From a virus (lineage: Duplodnaviria; Caudoviricetes): DNA of 24,898 bases. Of the stretch, positions 421-23,523 are shown piece after piece. The position numbers and the translations under genes were made by a program. Under the pieces are notes generated by a model, which saw nothing but the letters and a program-made list of their open reading frames with translations, had not been told where the DNA came from and did no database searches. The stretch's first letter is position 1; every line of letters starts with the position of its first letter. The stretch spans positions 1-24,898 of IMG/VR virus record IMGVR_UViG_3300012363_000021. One strand, 5' to 3'.

Positions 421-576
421 ATGCCCAGCCCTTTGAACCCTCACGCGGAGACCGCAATCTCCGGGGAGATCCAGGACCGCTGCCGCGTGGAACTGGCGGA
501 CGCGCCGCGCCTGGCGGAATGCCTCCGGCTCTATCGCGAGATGGAGCTCGAACGCCTCGGGGAAACGCCGGTCTGA
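421..576 (+). CDS. Hypothetical protein (51 aa, MPSPLNPHAE...)
   Basis: ATG at 421 closely follows the stop at 412; helical-looking C-terminus; 5' part overlaps repeat L1. Confidence 0.45.
   Translation: MPSPLNPHAETAISGEIQDRCRVELADAPRLAECLRLYREMELERLGETPV
426..481 (-). repeat. Boundary repeat, reverse copy L1
   Basis: Reverse complement gcggtcctggatctcc...tctccgcgtgagggttcaaagggctg has the TCCTGGA core and the CAAAGGG end at family spacing. Confidence 0.7.
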
Positions 577-709
577 CCCTTATTTGTTTTTGCTGGGCTT
601 TCCGGCCTTGTGAGCCGTGCCCTTTTTGGTCGCGGTCGTTTTCTTCCCGGCAACAGTTTTAGCCATGCCCCGAGCATAGCAATTTCAACCTCACTAAAGG
701 ACACACAAC

Positions 710-901
710 ATGCCACGCTGGCTTCAAATCCTATTGCACATCGCCACTACCGGAGCGGGCGCTTACATCGCCTACTCGACCGGCACGGCGCTGCCACTGG
801 TCATATCGGGCGGCGTCAACACATTGGTCGGTAGCATCGCGCAGAACTACAACACGGACGGCACGCCGCAGGCGCAGCCCTTCGTAAAGGCCCCGAAGTG
901 A
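710..901 (+). CDS. Putative holin (63 aa, two hydrophobic segments)
   Basis: Hydrophobic N-terminal two thirds; AAAGGA RBS in an A/C-rich leader; GTGA overlap with the downstream lysin-like gene. Confidence 0.65.
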   Translation: MPRWLQILLHIATTGAGAYIAYSTGTALPLVISGGVNTLVGSIAQNYNTDGTPQAQPFVKAPK

Positions 902-1293
902 TCGCGGTCAAGGCCACGCGCGAGGGGCTGGTCGCCAAACGGGTCCAGAACGCCGACGGCACGGTGACGATCACCGGACGCCCTACTTCGAGCGGCTACC
1001 TGATCGATACGGTAGTGCCGTTCGTGGCGCTGCCGGACGGGAAAGCGCTGGATCGGTTCGTGCGGGTGACCAATCCGGCCAACGGCCGATCGGCGATCGC
1101 CTGGGTGGGAGAAACCGGGCCGTGGAACGAGCACGACGACGCGTATGTGTTCGGGGGCGCACGGCCGGCGGCCGAAACCGGTGTGGACACGCGCGGGCGC
1201 AAGACCAACGGCGCGGGCATCGACCTCTCCGAGAAAATCTACCGTCAACTGGGCCTGATCGATAACTCTCCGGTCGAGTGGGAGTTCGTCTGA
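898..1293 (+). CDS. RlpA-like double-psi beta-barrel protein, putative cell-wall lytic enzyme
   Basis: VALP...VRVTNPANGRSAIAWVGETGPW...IDLSEKIYRQLG matches the DPBB pattern (V.N..NGR...V.D.GP...IDLS...LG); coupled to the holin-like gene. Confidence 0.7.
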   Translation: MIAVKATREGLVAKRVQNADGTVTITGRPTSSGYLIDTVVPFVALPDGKALDRFVRVTNPANGRSAIAWVGETGPWNEHDDAYVFGGARPAAETGVDTRGRKTNGAGIDLSEKIYRQLGLIDNSPVEWEFV

Positions 1294-1303
1294 TCGCACC
1301 GCG

Positions 1304-1483
1304 ATGCCCCAATATGTTCCGGCGGCTCCGATTGCGGACGTACTGTTCGAGCAGTTGGCCGAACTGCTGACGCACGTCTTGGATTGCACTCGACAGCCCG
1401 GCGGCTGCGATACCTGCATCCGTCTCGAAGCCGTCACGAAAGAATTGCTCTGGCCGTTCCGACACCCAGAAAAACGAAGTTAG
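1304..1483 (+). CDS. Hypothetical protein (59 aa, HxxxC-x6-CxxC)
   Basis: Own translation MPQYVPAAPIADVLFEQLAELLTHVLDCTRQPGGCDTCIRLEAVTKELLWPFRHPEKRS; fills the gap before the portal. Confidence 0.6.
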   Translation: MPQYVPAAPIADVLFEQLAELLTHVLDCTRQPGGCDTCIRLEAVTKELLWPFRHPEKRS

Positions 1484-1487
1484 CCGA

Positions 1488-3007: not shown

Positions 3008-3157
3008 ATGATCCCCGAATTAGAATCCGACGATCCCGTGTGGTGCCTGGTGAGCTGGGACATCATGCTGCGCCCCTACCGGCGCCCGCGGCGCAAGCTG
3101 CGCAGCCGGAAGGCTTCGTTCCCGGACCGCGTCCGAAATCGCTGCTCTGAATTCTAG
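3008..3157 (+). CDS. Small basic hypothetical protein (49 aa)
   Basis: GAGGGT RBS at 2994-2999; MIPELESDDPVWCLVSWDIMLRPYRRPRRKLRSRKASFPDRVRNRCSEF; 3' half overlaps repeats L2/R1. Confidence 0.4.
   Translation: MIPELESDDPVWCLVSWDIMLRPYRRPRRKLRSRKASFPDRVRNRCSEF
3074..3131 (-). repeat. Boundary repeat, reverse copy L2
   Basis: gcgcccgcg (3082) and ttcccggaccgcg (3119) have the same 37-nt offset as gcgcccgcg (5532) and atccaggaccgcg (5569) in L3. Confidence 0.55.
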
Positions 3158-3173
3158 CTCAAAGGGCTTGCCC
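3117..3173 (+). repeat. Boundary repeat, forward copy R1
   Basis: 3139-3173 matches 13452-13486 at 29/35 without gaps; lies just upstream of the protease. Confidence 0.8.
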
Positions 3174-3194
3174 TAATCCTATTTTTTCCACGAG

Positions 3195-4238: not shown

Positions 4239-5507
4239 ATGACCCCCGAAGAAATCAAAGCGATGGAAGACATCCGCACCGCCACGCTGGCTGCGATGGC
4301 CGCTTCCAAAACCGAGCACGCCAAGGCGCTCGGCGACCTCTCGACCGCCCTCATCGCGCGCATCGACGAACATAATACCAAGGGCTCGATCGACCCCGAG
4401 ACCAAAGAGAAGATCGACCGCCTGTTCGCGCGCCTCGACAAGCTGGAGCTGGACTCGACCCGTCCCGGCAGCGCGGCTTCCGTTTCGACCGAAGGCAAGA
4501 GCGCGGGCGAGCAGGTTATCTCGAGCGAAACCTTCCAGGCCGCGCAGAAATTGCAGTGGCTCGGACAGACCAAGGTTCCCTTCGCCGTGAAGGGCTGTCT
4601 GCCCCAGATCGAAATCCCCGGCCGCAAGAGCGCCATCACCACGGTCGGAGTCGGCACCGGGACCAGCGGCGTGCAGATGCCGCAGCGTTTGCCCGGCATC
4701 ACCGGCCTCGCGCGGCAGGCCCTGCGCATCCGCGATCTGTTGACCGTCCGGCCTCTCACCACCGGCAATTCCTTCGACTGGGTCAAGGAGCTGGCGCGCA
4801 CCAATAACGCCTCTCCCCAGATCGAATCGACGACCAAGGCGGAATCGACCTACACCTACACCGTGCAATCGGGCTCCGTCAAAACCGTGGCGCATTTCAT
4901 CAACGTCTCGCGCCAGGCTCTGGACGACATCGATTGGCTGCGCGGCAACATCGACTCGAACCTGATCTACGGACTGAAGGTCAAGGAAGAGTCCGAAATC
5001 CTGGCGGGCGACGGGCTGGGCCAGCATCTGAGCGGCCTGGTCACGCAGGCCTCCGCGTACAACACCGCGCTGCACGTGGCGGCCGACACGCGGCTCGACC
5101 AGCTCCGCCACGCCATCTTGCAGGCGCGCCTGGCCGGGTTGGACACTTACGCTCCGGACGGCATCGTTCTCCATCCGACCGATATGGAGAAAATCGAATT
5201 GATCAAGGTGGATCAGTCGGGGGCCAACACCGGCTTGTACATCCTCGGCGATCCCAAGACCGGCACGCAGATCAAGTTCGTCTGGGGCCTCCCCGTGGTG
5301 GAATCCGATTCCATGAGCGTGGGCCAGTTCCTGGTAGGCGGCTTCTCCACCGCCGCCGAATTGGTGGACCGCATGGCCGCCACCGTGCTGATCTCCTTCG
5401 AGCACGGCACCAATTTCACCGACAACATGGCCACCATCCTCTGCGAAGAGAGATTGGGCCTGCCCGTCAGACGGCCCGACGCCTTCATCCAAGGCACATT
5501 CGTCTAA
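4239..5507 (+). CDS. Major capsid protein, HK97 family
   Basis: N-terminal coiled-coil delta-like domain; LRIRDLL, KTVAHFINVSRQALDD, ILAGDG, WGLPVVES and ILCEERLGLPVRRPDAF motifs; AGGAG RBS. Confidence 0.97.
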   Translation: MTPEEIKAMEDIRTATLAAMAASKTEHAKALGDLSTALIARIDEHNTKGSIDPETKEKIDRLFARLDKLELDSTRPGSAASVSTEGKSAGEQVISSETFQAAQKLQWLGQTKVPFAVKGCLPQIEIPGRKSAITTVGVGTGTSGVQMPQRLPGITGLARQALRIRDLLTVRPLTTGNSFDWVKELARTNNASPQIESTTKAESTYTYTVQSGSVKTVAHFINVSRQALDDIDWLRGNIDSNLIYGLKVKEESEILAGDGLGQHLSGLVTQASAYNTALHVAADTRLDQLRHAILQARLAGLDTYAPDGIVLHPTDMEKIELIKVDQSGANTGLYILGDPKTGTQIKFVWGLPVVESDSMSVGQFLVGGFSTAAELVDRMAATVLISFEHGTNFTDNMATILCEERLGLPVRRPDAFIQGTFV

Positions 5508-5522
5508 CCCTCAAACGCCGTT

Positions 5523-5581
5523 TAGCCCCGTGCGCCCGCGCGCCAGCAAAGCGCGGGCGCACGGAGTTATCCAGGACCGCG
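5523..5581 (-). repeat. Boundary repeat, reverse copy L3, containing a perfect 14-bp hairpin
   Basis: Stem 5528-5541/5551-5564 (ccgtgcgcccgcgc) with a 9-nt loop, then tatccaggaccgcg, identical to 10282-10295. Confidence 0.75.
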
Positions 5582-5617
5582 CAGTCGTCAAACAGAGCCT
5601 CCAGCAAACACCGTGAC

Positions 5618-5671
5618 GCCGCGCTGGCACCTCCGCCCCGCGAGCAGATCGTCCGAACAAAAAAAGAAACC
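5618..5671 (+). repeat. Boundary repeat, degenerate forward copy R2
   Basis: cgctggc...gcagatcgtccgaacaaaaaaagaaacc resembles gcagacgtaacggcgcaaagagaatc; ends just before ATG 5675. Confidence 0.35.
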
Positions 5672-5674
5672 TTT

Positions 5675-5914
5675 ATGCCAAGACTGATCGCTATCCGCCA
5701 GTTGACCGGGGACTACGGCTGCGTAGACCCAGGCCAGCAGTTCGAGACCGACGCAGAGACCGCCGAGTCCCTGGAATCGCGCGGCCTCGCCTACGTCTAC
5801 CGCCCGCCGCGCTCCTTAGCGGAGCGTAAGGCCATGCAGGCGCCCGAAAACAAGGCCATGCAGGTGTCCGGCGACAAGGGCCATCCGTTCGAATTCATCG
5901 TCCGCTCGAAATAA
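5675..5914 (+). CDS. Small post-capsid phage protein (79 aa)
   Basis: MPRLIAIRQLTGDYG...PGQQFETDAETAESLESRGLA...APENKA is typical of small genes between capsid and connector; 3' end of the listed 4934..5914 frame. Confidence 0.8.
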   Translation: MPRLIAIRQLTGDYGCVDPGQQFETDAETAESLESRGLAYVYRPPRSLAERKAMQAPENKAMQVSGDKGHPFEFIVRSK

Positions 5915-5919
5915 CTCTC

Positions 5920-6612
5920 ATGCGCATCCTGCCCTGGAACCATCGTGTGCCCGTGCTGCGGGTGGTCACCCCGCCCGCGATGGAGCCCCTGTCTCTGGCC
6001 GAGGCCAAGCAGCAGATCCGGCTGGAGCAGGATTTTTCGGACGAGGACGACTACCTCTATCTCCTGATCGGCGCGGCCCGGCGCTTCTGCGAGCGCAGGA
6101 AAAGCTATTGCCTGGTCGAGCAGACCCTGGAATATTCCATCGACTGGTTCCCGCACTATCCGTTGGACGGCCTGGTGCTGCCCTATCCGGGAAGCAATTT
6201 GGGAATCGGCCTGTCGGCGTTTGCGATCGAATTGCCGAGGGCCACGCCGTTGCGCTCCATTCTGTCGGTCTACTACAGCGATTCGAACGGTGTCGCCGCC
6301 CTGTGGGATGCCTCCAACTACCGGGCCGAGACCTCCCGCACCCCCGGACTGCTGGTGCCGAATTACGGAGTGTCTTACCCGTCGTTCACGCCGCAGAACC
6401 AGAACGCGGTGAAGATCCAATACGTGGCGGGACCGGCGCTGCTCTCTCCGTCTGATGAAATCGACCCGTGCATCAAATTGGCGATGGGCCTGTTGGTCGG
6501 GCACTGGTATCAGAACCGCGAAGCCGCCGGAGGCACCGGAGGATTCGGAGTCATGCGGGAGCACGCCTTAATGGTGGACGACCTGCTGGGACTGGACCAA
6601 CTGATTTTCTGA
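5920..6612 (+). CDS. Head-tail connector (HK97 gp6 / phiE125 gp8-like)
   Basis: VTPPAMEPLSLAEAKQQIRL, AARRFCE and IKLAMGLLVGHWYQNREA motifs. Confidence 0.93.
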   Translation: MRILPWNHRVPVLRVVTPPAMEPLSLAEAKQQIRLEQDFSDEDDYLYLLIGAARRFCERRKSYCLVEQTLEYSIDWFPHYPLDGLVLPYPGSNLGIGLSAFAIELPRATPLRSILSVYYSDSNGVAALWDASNYRAETSRTPGLLVPNYGVSYPSFTPQNQNAVKIQYVAGPALLSPSDEIDPCIKLAMGLLVGHWYQNREAAGGTGGFGVMREHALMVDDLLGLDQLIF

Positions 6613-6670
6613 ACGCTGGCTGGGCTCCCGCGCAAGCCCGCTCCGCAGACGTAAAAGGCCAAAGAGAATT
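6613..6670 (+). repeat. Boundary repeat, forward copy R3
   Basis: cgcaagcccgctccgcagacgtaaaaggccaaagagaat shares cgcaagcccgctcc with R8 and ctccgcagacgtaa with R5; fills the intergenic gap. Confidence 0.85.
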
Positions 6671-6675
6671 ACATC

Positions 6676-7284
6676 GTGTTGGTCAGTGCCATCATGCCCA
6701 CGCGCGGGCGCCCGCAATTCGCTCAACGCGCACTGGAATGCTTTCTCTCGCAGACCTGGCCCGAGAAAGAACTGGCGATCCTGGACGATGCGGACAACCC
6801 GAGTTTTCCGGATGGAATCGCAGGCGAAGGAATTTACTACGAGCGGTTGAAGCGCAGGCTATCGATCGGCGCCAAACGAAACCTCTGCTGCTCGCGGGCC
6901 TCGGGCGACGTCCTGATGCACTGGGATGACGACGACTGGAGCTCGCCGGAACGGATGGCCGATCAGGTAGAACGCCTGAGTCAAGCGAACTGCGGGTTGA
7001 CCGGTTATCACTCCATGATCTTCGAGGACCGGGATACCGGGAAGCGCTGGAAGTATACAGGCCCCCTGCACGGCGCCGATGCCCTTGGCACCTCGCTCTG
7101 CTACACGCGCCGGTTCTGGATGGCGCATCCGTTCCCCGATCGACAGGTCGGCGAGGACGGAGCGGTTACGGGCCGCGTCTCGGGCATTCTCTCGGTGGAC
7201 GCCGGCGATTTGCTGATCGCCACGATTCACCCGGGCAACACCAGCCCCAAGACCATGGGCCGCCGCTGGGCGCTCCTCGACTGA
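6676..7284 (+). CDS. Glycosyltransferase family 2
   Basis: LVSAIMPTRGR, QTWPEKELAILDD, SIGAKRN, HWDDDDW and GED motifs of GT-A/GT2. Confidence 0.92.
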   Translation: MLVSAIMPTRGRPQFAQRALECFLSQTWPEKELAILDDADNPSFPDGIAGEGIYYERLKRRLSIGAKRNLCCSRASGDVLMHWDDDDWSSPERMADQVERLSQANCGLTGYHSMIFEDRDTGKRWKYTGPLHGADALGTSLCYTRRFWMAHPFPDRQVGEDGAVTGRVSGILSVDAGDLLIATIHPGNTSPKTMGRRWALLD

Positions 7285-7286
7285 CC

Positions 7287-7331
7287 GTTCTTTTTCCGCC
7301 CGCGCTTTTTCACCTGCCCAGTTCCCGGCGG
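7287..7331 (-). repeat. Boundary repeat, degenerate reverse copy L4
   Basis: ttctttttccgcccg resembles ttctctttgcgcccg of L5, 3 nt after a stop; core ttcccgg is at shorter spacing. Confidence 0.4.
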
Positions 7332-7391
7332 TGAAGCAATTCGACCCGTTACAAATCGCAACTCAACTCTAAAAGGACACCAAACAAAACA

Positions 7392-7787: not shown

Positions 7788-7799
7788 CCCAACTCTGGC

Positions 7800-7856
7800 G
7801 ATTCTCTTTGCGCCCGTTCGTCAACGGATGGGCGGGCGCGGAGATCCAAGAGTCAG
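7800..7856 (-). repeat. Boundary repeat, reverse copy L5
   Basis: Reverse complement ctgactcttggatctccgcgcccgcccatccgttgacgaacgggcgcaaagagaatc is a near-consensus full copy. Confidence 0.9.
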
Positions 7857-7876
7857 CCTCAATCTGCGAACTCCTC

Positions 7877-9455: not shown

Positions 9456-10309
9456 GACTCGCCGTCGTCGCCGGAGGCTGGCACTGGCCGCTCCACTTCT
9501 TCGCATCCGTCTCGAAGCAGGCGGGCGCGGCGGACCTGTTCGCCGTGGGGCACCGTTCCCCGGACCTGCCGGTTGTGCGGGAAGAGAAGCGCGCGATTCT
9601 CGAAGCGCTGCCGGGCGAGCTGGGCCGGGTGGACCGCGAACTCTACGGCCGCTATGCGGACACCGCGTGGCTGCATCGCCTGGGATGGCGCTATCGGGAA
9701 GAACCGAACACGGTAGGCGATTGGGGTTTCTTCAATCAATGGCTGGAGACGCACGACTACCGCAACTACGACCTGATCCTGTTCTGCCACGACGATACGT
9801 ACTTCCGGCCGCGCACCGATCTATTCAAGTTCCTGGCAGCGGTTGCGTCGTCGTCCGATTGGCTGATCGTTTCGCACAGCAAATATCCCGAGGCACCGCA
9901 AGGATACCTGCGCGGTTCGTTCGAATTCTGGACGCCGCAAATGCTGGACCTTTTGGGCGGCAAGATCGACCTGGGGCGGCTCGGCATGACACGGATGGGT
10001 CAATCGGACACACCGGTTGGAATGGAGGCCCTGTCGTCCTGGAATGCCACTTGCGATCCCTTAAGACGCTTCATGAGGGAGCGGAAACTGACGGACCGGA
10101 TCGCCTATCTGTCGAATCATTACCGGATCTCACCCTGGGCGATCGAAGGGGAGAGAGGATTCGTCAGCATGCAGGGCGGGGCACCATGGTCGTTCGAAGC
10201 CGGATTGCAAGCCTACCCGCTGCCCAACACGAACGCGGATAGCCCTGTGAGCCGGCACGCAAATACAGAGGGTTCGTCCGGTATCCAGGACCGCGGCGGG
10301 GCGGAATGA
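9452..10309 (+). CDS. Hypothetical protein, possibly a divergent GT-A fold glycosyltransferase
   Basis: GTGA-coupled; N-terminal beta strand (LAVVAGGW) and YDLILFCHDD DxD-like motif. Confidence 0.65.
   Translation: MRLAVVAGGWHWPLHFFASVSKQAGAADLFAVGHRSPDLPVVREEKRAILEALPGELGRVDRELYGRYADTAWLHRLGWRYREEPNTVGDWGFFNQWLETHDYRNYDLILFCHDDTYFRPRTDLFKFLAAVASSSDWLIVSHSKYPEAPQGYLRGSFEFWTPQMLDLLGGKIDLGRLGMTRMGQSDTPVGMEALSSWNATCDPLRRFMRERKLTDRIAYLSNHYRISPWAIEGERGFVSMQGGAPWSFEAGLQAYPLPNTNADSPVSRHANTEGSSGIQDRGGAE
10240..10294 (-). repeat. Boundary repeat, reverse copy L6
   Basis: Reverse complement gcggtcctggata...gcgtgccggctcacagggcta; lies within the 3' end of 9452..10309. Confidence 0.7.
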
Positions 10310-10485
10310 GCGTTCACAAACTCAGACGTCCAGCGGAGCGATGGCACAAAGACGTGCTGGCACTGGCGCGGCAATTGATGCAGAAGTATCCGGGCCTATC
10401 GCGCGATCAGGCGTGGAAGGATGCACGCGGAACGATCCGGATTTCCGGAGAAAAGTATCGGAGTGCCAAGAAAGGAGCGGCGTGA
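10306..10485 (+). CDS. Small basic helical protein (59 aa)
   Basis: Own translation MSVHKLRRPAERWHKDVLALARQLMQKYPGLSRDQAWKDARGTIRISGEKYRSAKKGAA; ATGA and GTGA overlaps at both ends. Confidence 0.7.
   Translation: MSVHKLRRPAERWHKDVLALARQLMQKYPGLSRDQAWKDARGTIRISGEKYRSAKKGAA
10314..10355 (+). repeat. Boundary repeat, forward copy R4
   Basis: cacaaactcagacgtccagcggagcgatggcacaaaga matches R9 at 25/38 ungapped. Confidence 0.55.
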
Positions 10486-11597: not shown

Positions 11598-11605
11598 AGG
11601 CCGTT

Positions 11606-12349: not shown

Positions 12350-12361
12350 CAAGCGGGGGAA

Positions 12362-12428
12362 AAAGCCGGTCTGGCTCTTCGGTCCTGCAGGCGGAGGGTG
12401 AGGCGGGCGCGGGGGCCAGCAGTCAGCT
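12362..12428 (-). repeat. Boundary repeat, reverse copy L7
   Basis: 59/67 identical to 15480-15546; contains the TGA of the antisense ORF. Confidence 0.9.
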
Positions 12429-12644
12429 TGACGGCTTCGTATCGCAAGCATCGCCGCAAGCCGTGCAGACGTAGCAGCAGGTGGCCGCGCCGAATCCGTC
12501 GTCGTCTCCAGAGATTTTGACTGGAGCGTTGCAACAATCCGAGACCGACGCGATGGCAACTGAGGCGCGCACATTACGTTCGCGCTGCTGGTCGGCCAAC
12601 CGGCGCTTGAACGTTTCGCGAATCCGCTGGCGCGTGTTCATCAC
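12423..12644 (-). CDS. Small antisense Zn-ribbon protein
   Basis: SDCCNAPV...YVCTACGDAC; occupies a + strand gap between L7 and R5. Confidence 0.65.
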   Translation of the reverse strand: MMNTRQRIRETFKRRLADQQRERNVRASVAIASVSDCCNAPVKISGDDDGFGAATCCYVCTACGDACDTKPSS

Positions 12645-12657
12645 TCACAGCTTACCG

Positions 12658-12715
12658 CCGACTCTTGGACAACTACGCAAGGCAACTCCGCAGACGTAAC
12701 GGCGCAAAGAGAATC
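12658..12715 (+). repeat. Boundary repeat, forward copy R5
   Basis: ccgactcttggacaactacgcaaggcaactccgcagacgtaacggcgcaaagagaatc, 17 nt before ATG 12733. Confidence 0.9.
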
Positions 12716-12732
12716 ATCGCCCGAAGTTCACT

Positions 12733-13470
12733 ATGCAATCGATCCTCGCCTGCCTGCGCGTCAAGAACGAAGCCCGCTGGATCGCACAAGTGCTCCAGTC
12801 CATTCAACCGTTGTGCCAGCGCATCCTGGTCTTCGACGATCGTTCCACCGATGACACGGTAGAGATAGCCCTGAATCGGGGAGCGGAAGTAATCCGGTCG
12901 CCCTTCGATGGACTGAACGAAGCGCGCGACAAAGCGTACCTGCTCGACGAATACCTGATCCCGGCAGATCCGGATTGGGTGCTGGCGATCGACGGCGACG
13001 AAATATTGACGCCCGATTCGATCCCGTTCGTTCAACGCGCCGCGGCCCGTCCCCAGGTCTCGCACTGCTCCTTTCGCGTGTTGTATCTGTGGGACCGGGA
13101 AGACCAGATCCGCACCGATGGAGTGTACCGGGATTTCCGGCGCTCTTCCATGTTCCGGGTAAGAGGGCAGCGCGGTTTGCATTTCCCCGCGTCGACGTCG
13201 CACGGCGGGAATTTCCATTGCAAGAGCGTCCCTCAGGGCTTACGCGGAATCGGCTCGCCGCTCGAAGCCAAGCTCCTGCACTACGGCTATCTGCACCGCG
13301 AGGACCGGCTCAGGAAATACGCGTGGTACCGGGCGCACGATCCGCACGCGCTTTCCGAAGACGGTTACCGGCATGTGGTGCAGGGCGACTTACCGGAGAT
13401 CCCGGCCGGAATGCGCTTGCTGCACGGCGGGCCGCTCAAACTCCAAACGCTCCGCTCCTCCGATTTCTAG
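12733..13470 (+). CDS. Glycosyltransferase family 2
   Basis: LRVKNEARWI, VFDDRSTDDT, DWVLAIDGDE and LLHYGY motifs. Confidence 0.93.
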   Translation: MQSILACLRVKNEARWIAQVLQSIQPLCQRILVFDDRSTDDTVEIALNRGAEVIRSPFDGLNEARDKAYLLDEYLIPADPDWVLAIDGDEILTPDSIPFVQRAAARPQVSHCSFRVLYLWDREDQIRTDGVYRDFRRSSMFRVRGQRGLHFPASTSHGGNFHCKSVPQGLRGIGSPLEAKLLHYGYLHREDRLRKYAWYRAHDPHALSEDGYRHVVQGDLPEIPAGMRLLHGGPLKLQTLRSSDF

Positions 13471-13486
13471 CGCAAAGGGCTTACCC
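13452..13486 (+). repeat. Boundary repeat, forward copy R6 (3' part)
   Basis: ccgctcctccgatttctagcgcaaagggcttaccc supplies the TAG of the GT gene; 29/35 to R1. Confidence 0.8.
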
Positions 13487-13500
13487 GCTTTTCGAATTCC

Positions 13501-13842: not shown

Positions 13843-13898
13843 TTTCTGTTTTGGCTCTAGCGTGAGTGCCGCCATGCAGCACCGCCCGCCACGAGCGG
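13843..13898 (-). repeat. Boundary repeat, degenerate reverse copy L8
   Basis: Reverse complement ccgctcgtgg...tagagccaaaacagaaa; same 42-nt end-to-core offset as L5; begins at the stop codon. Confidence 0.45.
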
Positions 13899-13958
13899 AT
13901 GGGTCAAATCCACAAGTATTTAGCCTAAAGGGTAAATTGAGTCCATCGACTAAACTTC

Positions 13959-14018
13959 CCCGCTCTTGGTTCACTTCGCAAGTTCACTCGCCTAGCCCGC
14001 ACGGGCGCAAAGAGAATC
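13959..14018 (+). repeat. Boundary repeat, forward copy R7
   Basis: 49/59 aligned to R9 with one gap. Confidence 0.9.
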
Positions 14019-14032
14019 ACCGCTAACCTGTC

Positions 14033-14620: not shown

Positions 14621-14625
14621 TTTAT

Positions 14626-14668
14626 CACGTCGGCAGCGCGGAGAAGAGGCCAGCGGCGGGGCTGAATG
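14626..14668 (-). repeat. Boundary repeat, degenerate reverse copy L9
   Basis: tcggc..cgcggaga.gaggc........gggc blocks are collinear with L10; lies between a + stop (14620) and a - stop (14669). Confidence 0.5.
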
Positions 14669-15010
14669 TTACGCCGGTTCGGCGGGCGCGATGCCGGCTG
14701 CGGACGTGCGCGTGCGCGTGGCGTCGATGGCATCGAGCAGAGCCTGGACCTTGCGCCCGATCTGAGTCCCCTTGGCAATCGAGGCGTGTGCCAGCCATTC
14801 GCGGACGGGTTCGGCTGCCTGATAGATCCCGGCCAGTTCAGGGGAATGGCCGCTGGTGACCAGGGCTCCCGATTCCACCGCGTCTTGCAAGCCGTGGATG
14901 GCGCGGTTGATGGCGTCGCGGCGCCAGCGCAGATCGGTCAACGCGCGCCGGTATTCCTCCGGGGTCAAGATTTCGATTTCCGTTTCGGTTCCCACGTGTG
15001 CAAACAGCAT
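14669..15010 (-). CDS. Antisense hypothetical protein (113 aa)
   Basis: Fills a + strand gap; helical composition; GAGG precedes the ATG on the - strand. Confidence 0.7.
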   Translation of the reverse strand: MLFAHVGTETEIEILTPEEYRRALTDLRWRRDAINRAIHGLQDAVESGALVTSGHSPELAGIYQAAEPVREWLAHASIAKGTQIGRKVQALLDAIDATRTRTSAAGIAPAEPA

Positions 15011-15015
15011 GCCTC

Positions 15016-15071
15016 AATCCAGGATCACTACGCAAGCCCGCTCCTCTGACCCACGGGCGCAAAGGGTTATC
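15016..15071 (+). repeat. Boundary repeat, forward copy R8
   Basis: aatccaggatcactacgcaagcccgctcctctgacccacgggcgcaaagggttatc. Confidence 0.9.
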
Positions 15072-15085
15072 CGGGAGAGTGCCGG

Positions 15086-15481: not shown

Positions 15482-15546
15482 AGCCGGCTTGGCTCTTCGG
15501 CCCCGCACGCGGAGAGCGAGGCGGGCGCGTGGGCCAGCAGTCAGCT
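15480..15546 (-). repeat. Boundary repeat, reverse copy L10
   Basis: 59/67 identical to L7; contains the TGA of the antisense ORF at 15543-15541. Confidence 0.9.
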
Positions 15547-15843
15547 CTCTTTTCTAGCCAGAACGCCGAACAGGCGGGCACTGACTCGCCAACGGGACCG
15601 GCGTGTTGCGTTCCGCTGTCGGAGCAGGGCGATGATTCTGTTTCGCGTTATCGCCGGGGTCTCATCCGGCAGGCACGGCAGAAACTGAGTATCTCCAGGC
15701 TTGGCATGTGCCATGCCCTCGATGATCCAGTAGCGGCGGCAACGGTCAGCGCCCCTCCACTTGGGGCGATGGCAGAACTGCTGTATGTCTTCAGCCGCGC
15801 GCCGGTCCAGATCCTCGGGCCATTCAGGCAGGGTTTTCAGCAC
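15541..15843 (-). CDS. Antisense hypothetical protein (100 aa)
   Basis: Starts 2 nt after the stop of the upstream - strand ORF and ends inside L10. Confidence 0.6.
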   Translation of the reverse strand: MLKTLPEWPEDLDRRAAEDIQQFCHRPKWRGADRCRRYWIIEGMAHAKPGDTQFLPCLPDETPAITRNRIIALLRQRNATRRSRWRVSARLFGVLARKES

Positions 15844-15845
15844 AG

Positions 15846-16259
15846 TCAGCCTGCGTTTTCCTCATCACCGACCACTTCGTATGCGGAATAATGCGTCAAC
15901 GGAATTGCCAGCGGCAAGTTGTGCGTCAGCAGCTTCCGGAGTGCGGAAGCATGTCCCCGTACTGCTTCTTGGCGGGTGCGGTAGTGCGCCGTGAACACCG
16001 CAAACAACTCGATCCCCTCCAGAAAGACCATCGTCTCGTAACCGTGCTCTGGCTCGCAGATATGCAACGGATCTTCCGCGTGAGCGCCTTCAAGGCAGAC
16101 AGTCGAGACCGTTACCTTCTTGGCCCAGCCATCTTCCCAACTGCGATTAAGGGCGCTGATCCCGATGGGCAAGCCGAAGGTACCGCTTACCTCGGAGAGC
16201 CTCACCTGCCGCGCGTTCATTCCTGCTGGCCGTGGCATCCGATCACTCGCAGCCATCAT
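15846..16259 (-). CDS. Antisense hypothetical protein (VSTV...YETMVF...Y.T..EA..GH motif)
   Basis: Globular-looking core; start uncertain (ATG 16259, 16238 or 16220). Confidence 0.7.
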   Translation of the reverse strand: MMAASDRMPRPAGMNARQVRLSEVSGTFGLPIGISALNRSWEDGWAKKVTVSTVCLEGAHAEDPLHICEPEHGYETMVFLEGIELFAVFTAHYRTRQEAVRGHASALRKLLTHNLPLAIPLTHYSAYEVVGDEENAG

Positions 16260-16260
16260 G

Positions 16261-16320
16261 CCCGCTCTTGGATCGCGACGCAAGCTCACTCGCCTAAGCC
16301 CGTGATGGCGCAAAGAGAAG
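16261..16320 (+). repeat. Boundary repeat, forward copy R9
   Basis: cccgctcttggatcgcgacgcaagctcactcgcctaagcccgtgatggcgcaaagagaag. Confidence 0.9.
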
Positions 16321-16349
16321 CGACCGCGCTCGTGGATCTGATCTGACTT

Positions 16350-16562
16350 ATGACCTGCTGCGGCCCTCTCAAAGATATCTCGACGATGGACGATTTCATT
16401 CCGGTCTATCTGTGTACGGAGTGCGGCAAACAGGGACCGCCCAGCGCCTTCCCGGATGAGCGGGAGCCCTCCCCAGAACCGATGACTCCGTTCGCACGCA
16501 TGCGCGAGACCGTGGCCGGCGGATTGGATCGCTTGGCCAACTGGATCGCGCCCCGCTACTGA
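16350..16562 (+). CDS. Small Zn-ribbon protein (70 aa)
   Basis: CCG...YLCTECGK; follows R9. Confidence 0.65.
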   Translation: MTCCGPLKDISTMDDFIPVYLCTECGKQGPPSAFPDEREPSPEPMTPFARMRETVAGGLDRLANWIAPRY

Positions 16563-16634
16563 TTTCCCGTTTCACCCGCACGCCCGCCCAGGGCCAGTTT
16601 TTAAAAACCAAACACCTAAAGGAGCAGCACAACT

Positions 16635-17084
16635 ATGGCAGGCAGATTCGCCAAAGGTACCGGTCTATTCGTGGAGGATCTGGCAGCGCCAGGGAACTTC
16701 ACGAAAATCGCCAACGTCAAGGGCATCGATGGCCCGAATTTCAAGGTAGACATCAAAGACACCACCACGCATTCGACGGTGGGGAACTTCAAGGAAAAGA
16801 CCGCCGTTCTGGTGGACGCGGGGCAACTCAAATTCACCGCCAACTTCGACCCCGACGATCCGACCCTCGATCCGGTCCTCGCGACATCGCTGTTCGGTTC
16901 GATGAAGAGCCTGACGTCGCGCAATTGGCAGCTCCGGCTGCCTCCCTCGAATCCCAACAAGCAGATGATGGCTTTCGCCGGCTTCGTCATCGATCACGGG
17001 TTCAAGTTTCCGGTGGCCGACATCCAGGAAGCCATGGTCACCATCGAAATCGACGGCGAGCCGGTGTGGGGAGTCTTCGCTTAA
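16635..17084 (+). CDS. Major tail tube protein
   Basis: IANVKGIDGP, DTTTHST, LVDAGQLKF, FAGFV and VTIEIDGEP motifs; AAGGAG RBS. Confidence 0.92.
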   Translation: MAGRFAKGTGLFVEDLAAPGNFTKIANVKGIDGPNFKVDIKDTTTHSTVGNFKEKTAVLVDAGQLKFTANFDPDDPTLDPVLATSLFGSMKSLTSRNWQLRLPPSNPNKQMMAFAGFVIDHGFKFPVADIQEAMVTIEIDGEPVWGVFA

Positions 17085-17092
17085 TCGGCGAT

Positions 17093-17137
17093 GCGGCCGG
17101 GGATGCTGACCGCATGAGAGCGCCCGGCCGCTTTTTT
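17093..17137 (+). terminator. Probable intrinsic terminator/attenuator after the tail tube gene
   Basis: gcggccggg/cccggccgc 9-bp stem with an inner atgc/gcat stem, followed by T6. Confidence 0.65.
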
Positions 17138-17159
17138 CCATTCGCAAAACCAAGGATCT

Positions 17160-17549
17160 ATGTCAGTCACCATCACGCTTGCGGGCCAAGTCCGCACTCT
17201 GCATTACAATTTCGCGCAGACCAAGAAGTTGAAGAAAGAATTTAAGTTCATGGGCTACGAGGATCTCATCAAGCTCATGCCGGAAGAGTATCTTCCCACG
17301 GCGCTCTACGACGGATGCGTCCAAAAGGAAGGCCTCACGCCGGAAATCATCGAAGGCGAATTGACGGGCCCGGATATCGATAACGCCTTAATCGCTTTCT
17401 GCACGGCTTTTTTCCCCCAGCGCGTAGCCAGGCTCCTTACCTACGTCGAAGAGAACCGGGAGCAACTGGTGAAAAAACTGGAAGCCGGCCTGAAAGCGGA
17501 GCCGCCGGCCGAAACGCCGAGCGAAACGAACAAGCCCCTGATCCAGTAG
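17160..17549 (+). CDS. Tail assembly chaperone (gpG-like)
   Basis: Position after the tail tube gene; ITLAGQVRTLHYNF pattern. Confidence 0.85.
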   Translation: MSVTITLAGQVRTLHYNFAQTKKLKKEFKFMGYEDLIKLMPEEYLPTALYDGCVQKEGLTPEIIEGELTGPDIDNALIAFCTAFFPQRVARLLTYVEENREQLVKKLEAGLKAEPPAETPSETNKPLIQ

Positions 17550-17873: not shown

Positions 17874-20800
17874 ATGCTGCTTCAGGAATTGCTGGTCAAA
17901 ATCTCGGCCGACGTAAGCGAGTACACCTCGGGCATCGCCGAAGCCGTGGGCCAGGCCAGCGAACTGGAAAGCGCCTTCTCCAGCCTCGGAGTCGGACTCT
18001 CCGCGGCCGTGACAGGTCCCTTGGTGGCCATCGGAGCGGCCGCCCTGGATGCTGCGGCCAACATCAAGGAAGCCTATAACGCCATTATCGTAGGGACGGG
18101 AGCGGTAGGCGACAACCTCGAATCGCTGAAAGGCTCGTTCGCTGCGGTGTTCGCCGAAGTTCCCGCCAGCGCCAAGGAAGTCGGCGGAGCCATCGCGTTC
18201 ATCAACAACGCGCTCGATCTGACAGGCGCGCCCCTAGAACAACTGACCGCACAGTTGGCCAAGTTGTCGGAAGTGACCGGGACTTCGTTAATGGAGAACG
18301 TCCGGTCGCTGGTTCCGATTTTCAATCAATGGCAGGTGGCCACCCAAGACCAGGCGCAAACCCTGAACTATCTCTGGGGCATCGCGCAGCACACCAACAC
18401 CAGCATGCTGCAGTTGGGCCAGGGGCTGACCGCATACGGCGCGAACTTCCGGAACATGGGAGTGGATCTCGAAGGCACGGCAGCCATCATCGGGGAATTG
18501 AGCAAGCTCGGCATCCCGGCGGAACGTGTCATGGCGGGCCTGGCGAAAGCCGTCAGCAACATGTCCAAGGCCGGGGTGGATACCTCGGACGGTTTCCGGC
18601 AGGTCATCGACTACATCAAGATGGCCTCCACCGAAGCGGAGGGATTGAAGCGCACGCTCGATATTTTCGGAGCGAAGGGTGGCGGCCAAATCTTTCAGGC
18701 GATCAAGCTGGGCGGCCTCGACGTGGACCCGCTCACCGCGCAGATGAAGTCCTACAACGCCTCGATTGCCGAGACGCAGGAAAAAACCAAGACCTTCACG
18801 ACGGTTCTGAAAGAGGAATGGAACAAGCTGCAACTGGGCCTGGCCCCGGTGGGCACGTCCATGACCAACACGCTGAAGGACGCGCTCCTGGCGTTCGATC
18901 CGCTCATCGCTGCCATCGGAAGATTGGGAACGGCGTTTGCATCGCAGCCGGAGAGTTACAAAACCATCGAACTGGGCATCGTCGGGATTGCGGCGGCGGC
19001 AGGCCCGGCCATTCTCGCACTCGAAAAGCTGAACGCCTGGGTGATCTCACCCGCGATTGCGGCGCTCAGCTCGACGCTCGGGCCGGGCGGGATGATCGGC
19101 GAATGGATGGCCGGGACCGTCAGCCTGTCGGGGACGGCGGTTGCGTTGACTGCCGCGCTGGCCGCGCTCGCTCTGGCGTTCGCGGGACTCGCCTTCGATG
19201 TGGGCGGGGCCGCCACCAAGCTGGGCGGGTGGCTCGACAATCAGGGTATCAATCTCTTCGAAATCCTGAAAGGGGCGGCACTAGGAAAAAGCCCGGCAGA
19301 GATAGCTGCGGCCAGCGCCGAGGCCTCTGCCAAGACGCTCGGCGACCGGGCGACGGACAAGCAAGCGGCGGCTCTCACCAACGCCTACGGGAATGCTTTG
19401 CAGCCCGGCTCGGATGCCGCGAACGCTGCGGCGGACACTCCCGAGGGTAAGGCAGCAGCCGCCAACGCCGTTGCCATTGCCAAGGCCCGAGAAGCGGCCA
19501 AAAAAGCGGCCAAGGAACTGGAAGAGGCGCTGTCCGTCTTCGGCCTGAAATCGCAGGAGGAGTTGGTCAAATTCCCTGCGGCGCTCGAAAAGATCGGCGC
19601 GGCCTTCGATCATGGGGCCTTGAGCGCGCAGCGATATGGCTTGGCCATCGAAGGAGCCATCGCCAAGGAACTGAGCGAAGCGGAGAAGCTGAGCAAGAGT
19701 TCCTTCGCTGTGGAATTGTCCGGCGCGGAGACCAAGGGCTTCCAGAAAGACCTCGCGGGCTTGAATACGGACCTAGCCGCCGGGCGGGTTTCGCTCAAAC
19801 AGTATGTGGAGGCGCTGAAGGATCTGCAGGACCGGTTCGCGGCGGCGACCGGAACCTCCCGTCAGAACGCGCTGAAACATCTGGGCATTCCGTCGCACGA
19901 AGATTTACAGGAAGCCTATGCGGATGCGCAACGCTACTATGCGCAGATCGTCGCCGACGCAAATCATACCGCGCAGGAAGAAAACCTGGCCTTCGAGAAG
20001 AAGCAGGCTGCCGGGCAGCAAGTGGACCCGCGGCTAATTGCCTACGCGCGCGTCGGGGTTACGCCCCAGGAGGTGCTTCAGCATTCCGCGCAGGTCGCGC
20101 AGGGCGATCTCGATAAGGTTTGGAACGACGCGGGCGCCACTACCGCTCAGAAATTCGCCACCTTCCAAAAGACCTATAGCGCGATCGCCGCCACGGACCC
20201 GACCAACAACGCGCTGCTGCGTCTCAATATTCCCTCGCGGACGCAGCTCGAAGAAGGCGCCAAGGCCGCGCAGGCCGACCTCGATCAGGTCATGAACGAT
20301 GCCGCCACCAGCATCGCTCAGAAATTCGCGACCTTCGAGAAGACGTACAGCGCGATCGCCGCCGCCGATCCGACCAAAAGCGTGCTGCTGCGTCTCGGAA
20401 TTCCCGACCGGACGCAGCTCGAACAACACGCCAAGGCCGCGCAGGCCGATCTCGATCAGGTCATGAACGATGCCGCCACCAGCATCGCTCAGAAATTTGC
20501 GACCTTCCAGAAAACCTACAACGACATCGCCGCCGCGGACCCAACCGACAGCGCGCTGCTGCGTGTCGGGATTGCCTCGCGGAAGCAGCTCGAACAAGGC
20601 GCCAGAGCCGCGCAGGCCGACCTCGATCAGGTAATGAACGATGCCCGCACCAGCATCGCTCAGAAATTCGCGACCTTCCAGAAGACCTATGAGACCATCG
20701 CCGCCGCCGACCCGACCAAAAGCGCGCTGCTGCGTCTCGGGATTCCCGACCGGACGCAGCTCGAACAACACGCCAAGGCCGCAGAGGCCGACCTCGATCA

Positions 20801-23273
20801 GGTCATGAACGATGCCGCCGTCACCATCGCTCAGAAATTCGCGACCTTCCAGAAGACCTACAACGACATCGCCGCCGCAGACCCGACCAAGAGCGCGCTG
20901 CTGCGTCTCGGGGTCTCCTCGCATACGCAGCTCACCGAAGAGGACAAGGCCGCGCAGGCCGACGTCAATACCGTCCTGAACGATCCGCGTTCCACCAGCG
21001 ATGAAAAATACGCGGCGATTCAGGCAGCTTCCGCGAAGAAACAGGCCGCCGATCCGCGGTTGTACGCCTTGCAACGATTAGGCGTGCCCGCCCAGACAGA
21101 CTTGAATGAAGCCGCCAAGGAGGCTGCGGATTATTACAATCGCATCGCCGGCAGCGCCAAATCCACAACGCTCGAAATCGGTCAGGCGTGGTATGCCATG
21201 ATCGACAAGCAGATCGCCGCCGATCAGCGTCTGAGCGCCGAAACCATCGCCGCCTATGTGGCCATCCGGGGCAATGCGAATTCGCAAATGCTGGATTTCG
21301 GCAAGGCCATCGAAGGCCAGGTGGAAACCGCCTTCTCGGGAATGAGCAAGGCCATCGCCACCAATCTGGTCACCTGGAAAGGCTGGAAAGATTCGGTCCT
21401 CAACATCGCCAAGGAATTCGCCGTCGGCTTCTTGGATATTTTCATCAAGCAGGCCCTGCTCCCGCTCGAAAAAGAGGCGGCCAAACTGGCCGTCACTCTG
21501 GGCACGAAACTGGGCAGCGGATTGGGCCTGTTCGGTGCGGCGGGAAAGGCTGGCGTCGACGCTGCCGTGGGTGCGGCGCCCGCAGCCGCCATGCAAGCGG
21601 GCGATGCGGCCATTCACTCGGCGGTCGATGCAGCCACGGGCGCAGGGGTCGATGCGGCTACCGGTGCCGGGGTCGATGCGGCTACCGGTGCAGCCACGAA
21701 TGCGGCGGGCCAGGCAGCGACCAAAGCTGTCAGCTCCAGTCTCATGGCCACCGTCGGCGCGATAAGCAGCGCCGTCACCGCAGTGACCGGCGTCATCGGG
21801 GTGTTCCAGACCATGCACATGGAGACGGCCCTCAAGGCGATCGTGGAGCACACCCTGCGAATTTTCAACGAGACGTTCAATCGGAGAAAAGACGCGTGGG
21901 ATCAACACATCGGTTTGATGGCCAAGCTGGACGACATCTGGAAAACCGTCGGGGAAGGCTTAGGAAATCTGTTCACGCGGTTGGGAGAAGTTTCGACGGC
22001 CCTCGCAAACGGGATCACCGTGAACGCCGGAGGAGCGGTTCCGGAATCGCCTCCCGCTGCTACTACATCTCCGACGCCCACTCCCGAAGAAGACGCCGTA
22101 GCCAAAGCGCAGAAGGACGCGGATCAAGCTAAGATCGACGCCGCGAAATCGGAATACGATGCCGCGATGGCTGCCAAAGCAGCCTCTGATAAAGCTATGG
22201 CGGACGCGCAGGCGGCGGCCGATGCAGCCGCAGCCGCGGTTCCCAATCCCGCCACGACTCCTCCGGTTGCGGGTTTCGGAGGCGGAAACCCCGCCGCCGC
22301 TCCGGTGGGCTTCGCTTCCGGCACGCCGCTTCCCGAGAATCAGAGCACGGTCAACATGCTGACGGTCCTGAATCAGACCTGCGGCGAGGGATTATCCGCG
22401 ATCCTCGCGCAATTGCAGCGGATGACGGGCTTCGGCGGAACGGGAACCGGAGCGGGCGGCGGCGGCACGGGCGCGGGCTCGTTCGCTCAACCGTCGTCTG
22501 TGCCTTACCAGCCGGGAACCTACGGCGGCGGCCCCTCTGCCGGCGAGATCGCAGCCAACGACAGCAAGAACAGCGTCATGGCGGCGCTCGCCTCTACGAC
22601 GGTAGAGGAATTTTTCGCGGACCTGAAGAGCCTTCCCGATGCCGCGCAATCGGTTGTCGAACAGGCCACCGCGAATATCGACCGCACCGCGCCGGGAGCA
22701 CTCGACAAGCTGAAAAACGGTCTCGGCATGTTCGCGCAGATGGCGATCGATGCGGCGGCGGGAGTCACGACCGGCATGGGCGGCGCGGCGGCGGCGGCGG
22801 GAGAGACGAGCAGGAATTTGGCGTCGCTCAGCAAGGTACTCGACGGCGTAGTTGCCTGGAATCCGGATGGCTCGATCGCGTTCGGCAGCGCTCCGGTGAC
22901 GCATCTCGATCCCGTCAAAGGACCGCCAGTCGGGATCTCGCGATTAGACGGCGTAGCTGCCTGGAATCCGGATGGCTCGATCGCGTTCGGATCTGGCCCG
23001 GCGACGCATCTCGATCCGACCAAGGGACCGGATTTTGGGCTCACCCGCGAGGGACCGATCAACCCGACCACCGGGCTCCCCTACGTCTACGGAAACACGC
23101 CCTACATCCCGTCATCCATCGATGTCAGCCGGTACAACAACACGCCCGATACGATCTATCCCAAAGCCTCCGACCTGGCACCGACCGTCTCGGTGCATAT
23201 CCACGACAACACGTTCCATTCCAGAGAAGACGCCGCGTACATGGCGCAACTGATCATCAATCAACTGAACTAA
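17874..23273 (+). CDS. Tape measure protein (1799 aa)
   Basis: ELLVKISADVSEY start, GLSAAVTGPL, Ala-rich helical body and internal repeats; synteny. Confidence 0.96.
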   Translation: MLLQELLVKISADVSEYTSGIAEAVGQASELESAFSSLGVGLSAAVTGPLVAIGAAALDAAANIKEAYNAIIVGTGAVGDNLESLKGSFAAVFAEVPASAKEVGGAIAFINNALDLTGAPLEQLTAQLAKLSEVTGTSLMENVRSLVPIFNQWQVATQDQAQTLNYLWGIAQHTNTSMLQLGQGLTAYGANFRNMGVDLEGTAAIIGELSKLGIPAERVMAGLAKAVSNMSKAGVDTSDGFRQVIDYIKMASTEAEGLKRTLDIFGAKGGGQIFQAIKLGGLDVDPLTAQMKSYNASIAETQEKTKTFTTVLKEEWNKLQLGLAPVGTSMTNTLKDALLAFDPLIAAIGRLGTAFASQPESYKTIELGIVGIAAAAGPAILALEKLNAWVISPAIAALSSTLGPGGMIGEWMAGTVSLSGTAVALTAALAALALAFAGLAFDVGGAATKLGGWLDNQGINLFEILKGAALGKSPAEIAAASAEASAKTLGDRATDKQAAALTNAYGNALQPGSDAANAAADTPEGKAAAANAVAIAKAREAAKKAAKELEEALSVFGLKSQEELVKFPAALEKIGAAFDHGALSAQRYGLAIEGAIAKELSEAEKLSKSSFAVELSGAETKGFQKDLAGLNTDLAAGRVSLKQYVEALKDLQDRFAAATGTSRQNALKHLGIPSHEDLQEAYADAQRYYAQIVADANHTAQEENLAFEKKQAAGQQVDPRLIAYARVGVTPQEVLQHSAQVAQGDLDKVWNDAGATTAQKFATFQKTYSAIAATDPTNNALLRLNIPSRTQLEEGAKAAQADLDQVMNDAATSIAQKFATFEKTYSAIAAADPTKSVLLRLGIPDRTQLEQHAKAAQADLDQVMNDAATSIAQKFATFQKTYNDIAAADPTDSALLRVGIASRKQLEQGARAAQADLDQVMNDARTSIAQKFATFQKTYETIAAADPTKSALLRLGIPDRTQLEQHAKAAEADLDQVMNDAAVTIAQKFATFQKTYNDIAAADPTKSALLRLGVSSHTQLTEEDKAAQADVNTVLNDPRSTSDEKYAAIQAASAKKQAADPRLYALQRLGVPAQTDLNEAAKEAADYYNRIAGSAKSTTLEIGQAWYAMIDKQIAADQRLSAETIAAYVAIRGNANSQMLDFGKAIEGQVETAFSGMSKAIATNLVTWKGWKDSVLNIAKEFAVGFLDIFIKQALLPLEKEAAKLAVTLGTKLGSGLGLFGAAGKAGVDAAVGAAPAAAMQAGDAAIHSAVDAATGAGVDAATGAGVDAATGAATNAAGQAATKAVSSSLMATVGAISSAVTAVTGVIGVFQTMHMETALKAIVEHTLRIFNETFNRRKDAWDQHIGLMAKLDDIWKTVGEGLGNLFTRLGEVSTALANGITVNAGGAVPESPPAATTSPTPTPEEDAVAKAQKDADQAKIDAAKSEYDAAMAAKAASDKAMADAQAAADAAAAAVPNPATTPPVAGFGGGNPAAAPVGFASGTPLPENQSTVNMLTVLNQTCGEGLSAILAQLQRMTGFGGTGTGAGGGGTGAGSFAQPSSVPYQPGTYGGGPSAGEIAANDSKNSVMAALASTTVEEFFADLKSLPDAAQSVVEQATANIDRTAPGALDKLKNGLGMFAQMAIDAAAGVTTGMGGAAAAAGETSRNLASLSKVLDGVVAWNPDGSIAFGSAPVTHLDPVKGPPVGISRLDGVAAWNPDGSIAFGSGPATHLDPTKGPDFGLTREGPINPTTGLPYVYGNTPYIPSSIDVSRYNNTPDTIYPKASDLAPTVSVHIHDNTFHSREDAAYMAQLIINQLN
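19869..21236 (+). repeat. 171-bp (57-aa) tandem repeat in the tape measure gene, ~8 units
   Basis: Unit starts at 19869, 20040, 20211, 20382, 20553, 20724, 20895 and 21066; central units near-identical, outer units degenerate. Confidence 0.95.
21624..21695 (+). repeat. 24-bp (VDAATGAG) x3 tandem repeat
   Basis: gtcgatgc units at 21624, 21648 and 21672. Confidence 0.9.
22839..23030 (+). repeat. 105-bp (35-aa) duplication near the tape measure C-terminus
   Basis: LDGV.AWNPDGSIAFGS.P.THLDP.KGP at 22839 and 22944. Confidence 0.92.
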
Positions 23274-23282
23274 CCGGACTGT

Positions 23283-23338
23283 GTTGCCCTTTGCGCCGGT
23301 ACGTAAGGGGCGAGGCGGGCGCGGGCATCCAGGAGCGG
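23283..23338 (-). repeat. Boundary repeat, reverse copy L11
   Basis: Reverse complement ccgctcctggatgcccgcgcccgcctcgccccttacgtaccggcgcaaagggcaac, 9 nt after the tape measure stop. Confidence 0.9.
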
Positions 23339-23464
23339 GGCAGGCGGTGGGACCTGGCGCGACGCGAAATCCGGTTGCTACATTCCCCGGTTGCTGCATT
23401 CCGAATCGCGCCAGTAGACGAAGCACCGACCAAACGAACCTTGGCAGGCACCGGAACCATCATG

Positions 23465-23523
23465 CGCGCTCTCGGTTCCCCGCGTCAATCGCTCGCCTAG
23501 CCCGTTCGGGCGCAAAGAGAATC
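23465..23523 (+). repeat. Boundary repeat, forward copy R10
   Basis: cgcgctctcggttccccgcgtcaatcgctcgcctagcccgttcgggcgcaaagagaatc shares ctcgcctagcccg and cgggcgcaaagagaatc with R7. Confidence 0.9.

Follow-up and report, generated by a model that had tools for sequence, protein, structure and literature searches.

Why do copies of one repeat stand at gene boundaries in the late region of this phage, in an orientation that follows the start and stop codons? The window, by which we mean the whole 24,898-nucleotide stretch that was analyzed, covers the late region of a tailed phage of the HK97 type (phage A). ORF and profile annotation places in it the portal, protease, capsid, and adaptor genes, a glycosyltransferase/methyltransferase/aminotransferase cluster, and genes for head closure, neck, tail terminator, tail tube, and tape measure. 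An initial annotation had read the repeats as a 55-60 bp family enclosing late genes, with a forward copy ahead of the start codon, a reverse copy behind the stop codon, and the AAAG ends pointing at the gene. It had proposed that the enclosed gene is an exchangeable module or that the copies act gene by gene on the late operon. The known sequence of phage A reaches ∼37 kb via overlapping records, and we compared it with phage B, which spans the same region and has a capsid 76% identical to that of phage A, and with L122, a variant 99% identical to A.

A profile search of the window together with an alignment confirms that the repeat family is real, with a conserved unit of ∼85 bp; conservation runs ∼20 nt further inward than the length first assigned, which was too short. 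The window holds 15 profile-supported copies, the half copy at 13452 included. When the model is built from phage B only, 10 window copies score at least 20 bits and 12 at least 5 bits, compared with a maximum of 12.7 bits and one match of at least 10 bits in 100 dinucleotide shuffles of the window. Fourteen of the 16 copies listed initially were recovered by profile (13452 as an outer half only); that at 13843 has no profile score and that at 14626 scores 2.4 bits, so that both are at best decayed or truncated, and one clear reverse copy (10232-10314) had been overlooked. Five columns, three of them in the outer block, are invariant in an alignment of 37 copies from A, B, L122, and the contig L070, which excludes one truncated phage B copy lacking the outer anchor, the window half copy, and an L122 duplicate.

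The polarity relative to genes withstood a permutation check. The AAAG end lies 0-45 nt before a + strand start (forward copies) or after a + strand stop (reverse copies) in 14 of the 15 window copies, with gene starts picked by the analyst from ORF and profile matches. Random positions give a mean of 0.8 such copies and noncoding positions 3.2; none of 5000 noncoding draws reached 14, and with strands flipped only one of the 15 copies fits. The sole exception, anchored at 10243, lies 66 nt inside the 3′ end of a gene. Proximity to the codons thus stands, with measured distances of 10-44 nt (forward) and 12-26 nt (reverse) in place of the 5-30 and 0-20 nt first given, and the portal, capsid, and tape measure ORFs are free of copies, as had been claimed. 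Most late-gene junctions in the window have no copy. Solo ends are common: only three complete pairs occur among the 15 copies, three reverse and later three forward copies follow one another consecutively, and solo reverse copies lead straight into + strand starts at 7877 and 10306. Phage B copies mostly alternate. The features are collected in Table 1.

Table 1. Repeat copies, cassettes, and empty junctions of phage A in window coordinates
Feature	Position	Strand	Remarks
Solo reverse copy, subtype C	417..488	-	29.9 bits
Solo forward copy, subtype C, before prohead protease	3094..3174	+	18 bits; phage B copy at same junction
Solo reverse copy, subtype C, after major capsid gene	5513..5586	-	Phage B copy at same junction; contains a private long hairpin
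Forward copy, subtype A, without inner block	6619..6679	+	Full reverse-cargo-forward cassette here in phage B
Possible remnant, outer block of a reverse copy	7288..7305	-	Read from sequence, no profile score; upstream edge of gene 7392-7787, which is missing from phage B
Solo reverse copy, subtype A	7796..7873	-	Inner end leads into methyltransferase start 7877; sole subtype A copy in reverse orientation
Reverse copy, subtype C	10232..10314	-	Overlaps 3′ end of gene 9452-10309; in phage B a subtype B copy overlaps the gene 3′ end likewise
Empty 8-bp junction	11598..11605		320-bp cassette here in phage B
Complete cassette	12369..12717		Reverse copy 12362-12449 (B), cargo, forward copy 12635-12719 (A)
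73-aa Cys-rich cargo ORF	12423..12644	-	Starts at forward copy inner edge, stops at reverse-copy TGA
Outer half of forward copy	13451..13492	+	99%-identical variant L122 has 312 bp in place of window 13434-13451
Short unit without ORF	13843..14024		Unscored, possibly decayed reverse end; forward copy 13952-14024
Unit with truncated reverse end (2.4 bits)	14621..15073		Forward copy 15002-15073 (C); 113-aa antisense ORF 14669-15010; different cargo at that junction in phage B
Complete cassette	15487..16323		Reverse copy 15480-15548 (B), forward copy 16239-16320 (A); antisense ORFs 15846-16259 and 15541-15843, the latter stopping at reverse-copy TGA
Empty junction	16563..16634		365-bp cassette here in phage B
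Complete cassette after tape measure gene	23281..23525		Reverse copy 23278-23358 (C), forward copy 23445-23524 (A); ∼80 bp cargo without fitted ORF

The late genes on the + strand are collinear and in the same order in phages A and B, and the spacers are what varies. At three junctions, one phage carries a whole unit of reverse copy, cargo, and forward copy and the other has no repeat, as far as two phages too diverged for an exact empty-site reading can be compared. The junctions before the tail tube gene and after the aminotransferase gene are empty in the window and filled in phage B; that between the last two glycosyltransferases is filled in the window and empty in phage B. The cargo of this last cassette has a homologue in phage B at the tail tube junction (87.5% identity over 96 nt), and a protein search with it returned the phage B cargo as the only homologue (2/2 candidates). 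The relocated pair differs by 13 synonymous and 7 nonsynonymous changes in 38 shared codons, and its 5′ halves are unrelated. Except for one pair, the cargos are unrelated to one another. Between the neck and terminator genes, both phages have a unit and the cargo differs. L122 carries 312 bp in place of window 13434-13451, comprising an antisense frame and the inner half that the forward copy lacks in the window, and mid-repeat breakpoints lie at 13452 and 6613.

Because the late genes stay put while spacers vary together with both ends, the AAAG ends face outward from the mobile unit. The cassette (reverse copy, cargo, forward copy) is, with high confidence, the unit that is gained, lost, and relocated between late genes. 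Cassette-like exchange, as first suggested, is accordingly borne out with the unit inverted, and the stop-to-start polarity arises because an element with inverted ends sits between a stop codon and a start codon.

The two ends of a cassette are mostly distinct subtypes in fixed orientation: subtype A is forward in 14 of 15 copies, subtype B is reverse in 11 of 11, and subtype C is found both ways (5 and 6). This distinction extends to the 6 nt beyond the invariant block, where on average 3.5-4.1 of 6 positions are identical within subtypes and 1.24 of 6 between subtypes A and B; no A-B pair among 165 reaches at least 5 of 6. Matched in mirror image against its outside flank, the arm agrees best across a 6-bp core (105 of 259 versus 73 ± 7), although the mirrored half-site is weak (41%), cores of 3, 4, 5, 7, and 8 also give p < 0.05, and T-rich intergenic composition could contribute. 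By the same mirror match and by column counts, the outside half of the end is not conserved. Neither a target duplication nor a consistent adjacent direct repeat was found in 11 cassettes. Within subtypes, the inner half of a repeat does not correlate with its outer half (Mantel rho 0.06 and 0.16), which short, saturated sequences could partly explain, and identical inner halves occur on outer halves that are 50% identical.

The cargo measures 75-670 bp between 90-nt ends. A TGA stands at the inner edge of the reverse end in 6 of 11 paired cassettes, and in all six an antisense frame of 56-106 codons is open up to that TGA (joint shuffle P 7e-7); the other five have no frame spanning to that position. 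Five of these frames extend back as far as the forward end's inner edge; the remaining one belongs to a cassette with two ORFs and is the second of them. Two phage B cargos seem to read in the late sense. A PHROG family was assigned to one of 10 scanned cargo proteins, and that family has no known function. The cargo ORF L007 1101-1316 (+) has no PHROG or NCBIfam match; its N-terminal half resembles the beginning of HigA-type antitoxins, a likeness that suggests a chimeric gene. On L002 of phage B, 9184-10316 holds two tandem cassettes joined via a truncated forward copy, with both cargos apparently in the late sense.

Two RNA-level readings were considered and rejected. Structured RNA found no support from Rfam (no match in the window or phage B) or RNAalifold (no consensus base pair in 37 copies). 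Looping out of cargo from mRNA by pairing of the ends, similar to an rRNA intervening sequence, would call for cognate ends that complement each other; cognate pairs are no more complementary than noncognate ones (p 0.51; phage B alone, 0.31), and about half of the cassettes can pair their ends in a whole-cassette fold.

We consider it somewhat probable that these two-ended cassettes are moved by a tyrosine recombinase, an enzyme class suggested by the weak mirrored half-site across 6 bp. Acting in trans, the enzyme would cut just outside the invariant AAAG block. A first insertion at a repeat-free junction would use a degenerate half-site across the ∼6-bp core and leave no target duplication, and cargo could later be swapped by crossovers between like ends (forward × forward, reverse × reverse), partly mid-repeat. 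With their differing cores, the two ends would not allow a single cassette to be excised or inverted, solo and half copies would be leftovers of deletion, and the forward end may provide the cargo with a promoter and a start context. Support for this model comes from the three presence/absence junctions, the relocated cargo, the subtype orientation, the TGA-fitted frames, the 6-bp mirror peak, the missing target duplication, the uncorrelated repeat halves, and the mid-repeat break in the 99% variant. Against it stand the failure to find a recombinase, the recombinase-bearing relatives without repeats, the weak half-site, the lack of an exact empty site, the excess of solo ends over cassettes, the absence of an excised form from contigs, and the absence of a σ70 call from the copies in 5400-17200.

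Some of these observations would also be expected of regulatory modules (a promoter or leader, stop signals, small antisense genes) that spread by homologous or annealase-type recombination in a PeSL-like manner and have no dedicated enzyme. The mosaic repeat halves, the breakpoints at 13452 and 6613, the start and stop codons fitted to the ends, and the solo reverse copies running directly into + strand starts all agree with such modules. Repeat homology alone is insufficient, however, because whole two-ended cassettes stand at junctions that are repeat-free in the relative. Moreover, the invariant bases lie at the outer end, the copies form inverted pairs of two subtypes, and promoter and terminator calls fall outside them: within 5400-17200, neither of two σ70 calls falls in a copy (shuffles, 3.1) and no copy has a terminator call. 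We regard this explanation as unlikely, and still more so a descent from a DDE insertion sequence as MITE-like or mobile-insertion-cassette derivatives, with long imperfect terminal inverted repeats served by a host transposase. Inverted homologous ends with several conserved blocks, intergenic insertion, and the size range of the cargo are what such derivatives would show. They do not account for 11 cassettes without a target duplication, for the lack of a fixed terminal dinucleotide beyond the invariant block, or for the strict left/right orientation bias, and no supported copy turned up in the GTDB-wide scan or in sampled genomes.

The initial model, in which units of forward copy, gene, and reverse copy punctuate the late operon as modules or as binding/processing sites, draws on the boundary association, on the retention by both phages of subtype C copies at the protease and capsid junctions, and on the frequency of solo copies. 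As an account of mobility it is largely refuted. Only spacers with both ends vary among collinear late genes, most junctions lack a copy, and the copies share no consensus fold. Late-operon control is not supported either, because two relatives (G537 and G534) that share the head genes and one or more of the glycosyltransferase genes are entirely without repeats. We give this model little credence, and the least to the proposal that the ends are hairpin substrates of an HUH nuclease (REP/RAYT or IS200/IS605-type), with REPIN-like pairs. In many copies a short stem can form immediately inward of the invariant block, and the missing target duplication would fit, but the 37 copies share no consensus pair, several fold at only 0 to -2 kcal/mol, and sampled genomes contain no host copies.

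The initial annotation had suggested looking elsewhere on the contig for a recombinase. An ORF scan found none in ∼37 kb of phage A or in the phage B contig, and PF00589 is absent from the IMG/VR records of A and B, which are 31% and 34% complete. G537 and G534 encode a tyrosine recombinase yet lack the repeats; in G534 it is short (232 aa; L250 12457-13152 (-)) and follows the clamp gene, and the phage A contig stops just past its own clamp gene, before the equivalent position. Contigs from seven runs contain no excised, empty, or cassette-sized joint, which is no evidence of absence. The clamp-like gene, L031 23-1675 (-), is DNA polymerase clamp-like and has a C-terminal excisionase-like domain; it adjoins a conserved 348-aa gene just left of the terminase genes, and the same pair is present in G534. 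Directly behind reverse copy 10232-10314 lies a 59-aa ORF (10306-10485); two runs each have one contig that jumps over it (176 nt, with 6-bp microhomology and only 24 letters on the short side).

Phage A is found in soil metagenome runs (11 listed, four with at least 89% of its words), and no RNA run is among those listed as carrying it. The source named for one capsid relative (54% identity) is a Bryobacterales genome, which makes an acidobacterial host likely. In pattern scans of viral and metagenome contigs, profile-supported copies were confined to A, L122, B, and L070, a 1.6-kb contig that shares only the repeats with the others; loci without profile support made up 47 of 48 other (one single 16-bit match), 65 of 80, and 101 of 103. 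The gene beside the repeats at L070 2-295 matches phrog_12985 (unknown function) and may resemble podovirus head-completion proteins; if it is podovirus-like, the repeats would occur in a second phage type.

Elsewhere the repeats were not encountered. GenBank phages and PLSDB plasmids gave no match, and a GTDB-wide pattern scan gave 11 single matches, one with a lone 16-bit profile score and none supported. By pattern, 11 of 401 bacterial genomes had one unsupported match each; by model, one of 151 had a chance match, inside a gene. The possibility raised earlier of a common host REP element thus finds no supported copy in the sampled bacterial genomes, which need not include the host. Neither relative carries a copy; G537 is 98% complete, with a capsid at 58% identity and three of the glycosyltransferases. 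A literature search found no description of the repeats, and the family is apparently undescribed, with cassettes seen so far in three distinct elements.

Several known systems share features with these cassettes. Tn916-type elements have a cognate tyrosine recombinase and a circular intermediate, leave no target duplication, and place a short core beside a degenerate target half-site, and integrons hold ORFs fitted tightly to recombination sites, each a single folded attC, in a tandem array behind the integrase. The cassettes resemble the former in the missing duplication, the short core, and the degenerate half-site, and the latter in the fit of ORFs to sites. They differ from both in that no enzyme lies in the unit and two dispersed ends bound each cassette without a tandem array, and from attC in particular in having inverted pairs, no consensus fold, and no Rfam match. 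Terminal inverted repeats are shared with MITE or DDE derivatives, which differ in their target-site duplication. Unlike host REP or REPIN elements, the repeats have no many-copy chromosomal presence in sampled bacteria, with the same reservation about the host.

The closest analogues are the mycobacteriophage MPMEs, Acinetobacter dif modules, and T4 PeSLs, and each departs from the cassettes in a defining feature. MPME1 and MPME2 are sub-kilobase phage elements bounded by a left and a right inverted repeat; related phages carry them at different sites, and an unexplained 6-bp stretch is added at one end, new at each insertion (PMC3029335). MPME1 has one fixed sequence of 439 bp that does not differ between phages (PMC3029335, PMC13604845). 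MPMEs and the cassettes alike are borne by phages and have inverted ends and a 6-bp stretch at an end. An MPME has the same ∼439-bp interior throughout, whereas cargo here is variable and chimeric and the ∼85 bp ends come in two subtypes with many units per genome. The 6-nt stretch here recurs within subtypes and is subtype-specific.

The pdif modules of Acinetobacter plasmids use XerC/XerD at a 28-bp site with two conserved binding sites and a 6-bp spacer; their sites alternate in inverse orientation, and two crossovers, at sites whose 6-bp spacers match, replace a single module (PMC13141974). Inverted sites bounding accessory modules and spacer-matched replacement are likenesses. The cassettes are set apart by having one conserved arm and an unconserved outer half, by a repeat three times longer, and by whole cassettes at site-free junctions. 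PeSLs of T4-type phages combine a consensus σ70 promoter with a terminator stem-loop, mostly in hyperplastic regions (PMC2839356). Both families are dispersed intergenic repeats with small ORFans and shuffling between copies. In contrast to PeSLs as outlined there, the copies here have no σ70 call, stem-loop consensus, or terminator call, and they form inverted two-subtype pairs in the virion module.

It has long been asked how single accessory genes (morons, ORFans) enter cleanly between essential phage genes. One tentative and rather doubtful answer here would be a dedicated phage gene-capture system, in which a recombinase and two noninterchangeable ∼85-bp ends place cassettes between essential late genes. 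In this reading the ends would supply a start context and a stop codon, so that captured or chimeric DNA would become an expressed antisense gene. If true, it would amount to a natural system for exchanging cassettes and to a source of phage ORFans. Since the insertions carry recognizable, reusable ends, the insertion step can be tested, and the material offers sites and cargo that are defined and alleles that are naturally empty, filled, or swapped. A noninterchangeable end pair that permits cargo exchange could also be useful as a genetic tool.

The phage shows other features besides the repeats. On L031, left of the window start region, an 81 bp segment (9127-9207) that also occurs in the first 100 bases of the window is missing from the near-identical contig WNFC01001110.1, at a position away from any repeat. 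The glycosyltransferase, methyltransferase, and DegT-type aminotransferase cluster (6676-13470) lies between the adaptor and head-closure genes. In G537 and G534, parts of this cluster are found again behind the capsid gene; this arrangement suggests a role in virion glycosylation. The tape measure gene contains five 171-nt (57-codon) tandem repeats at 20048-21031 and a 105-nt duplication at 22842-23047.
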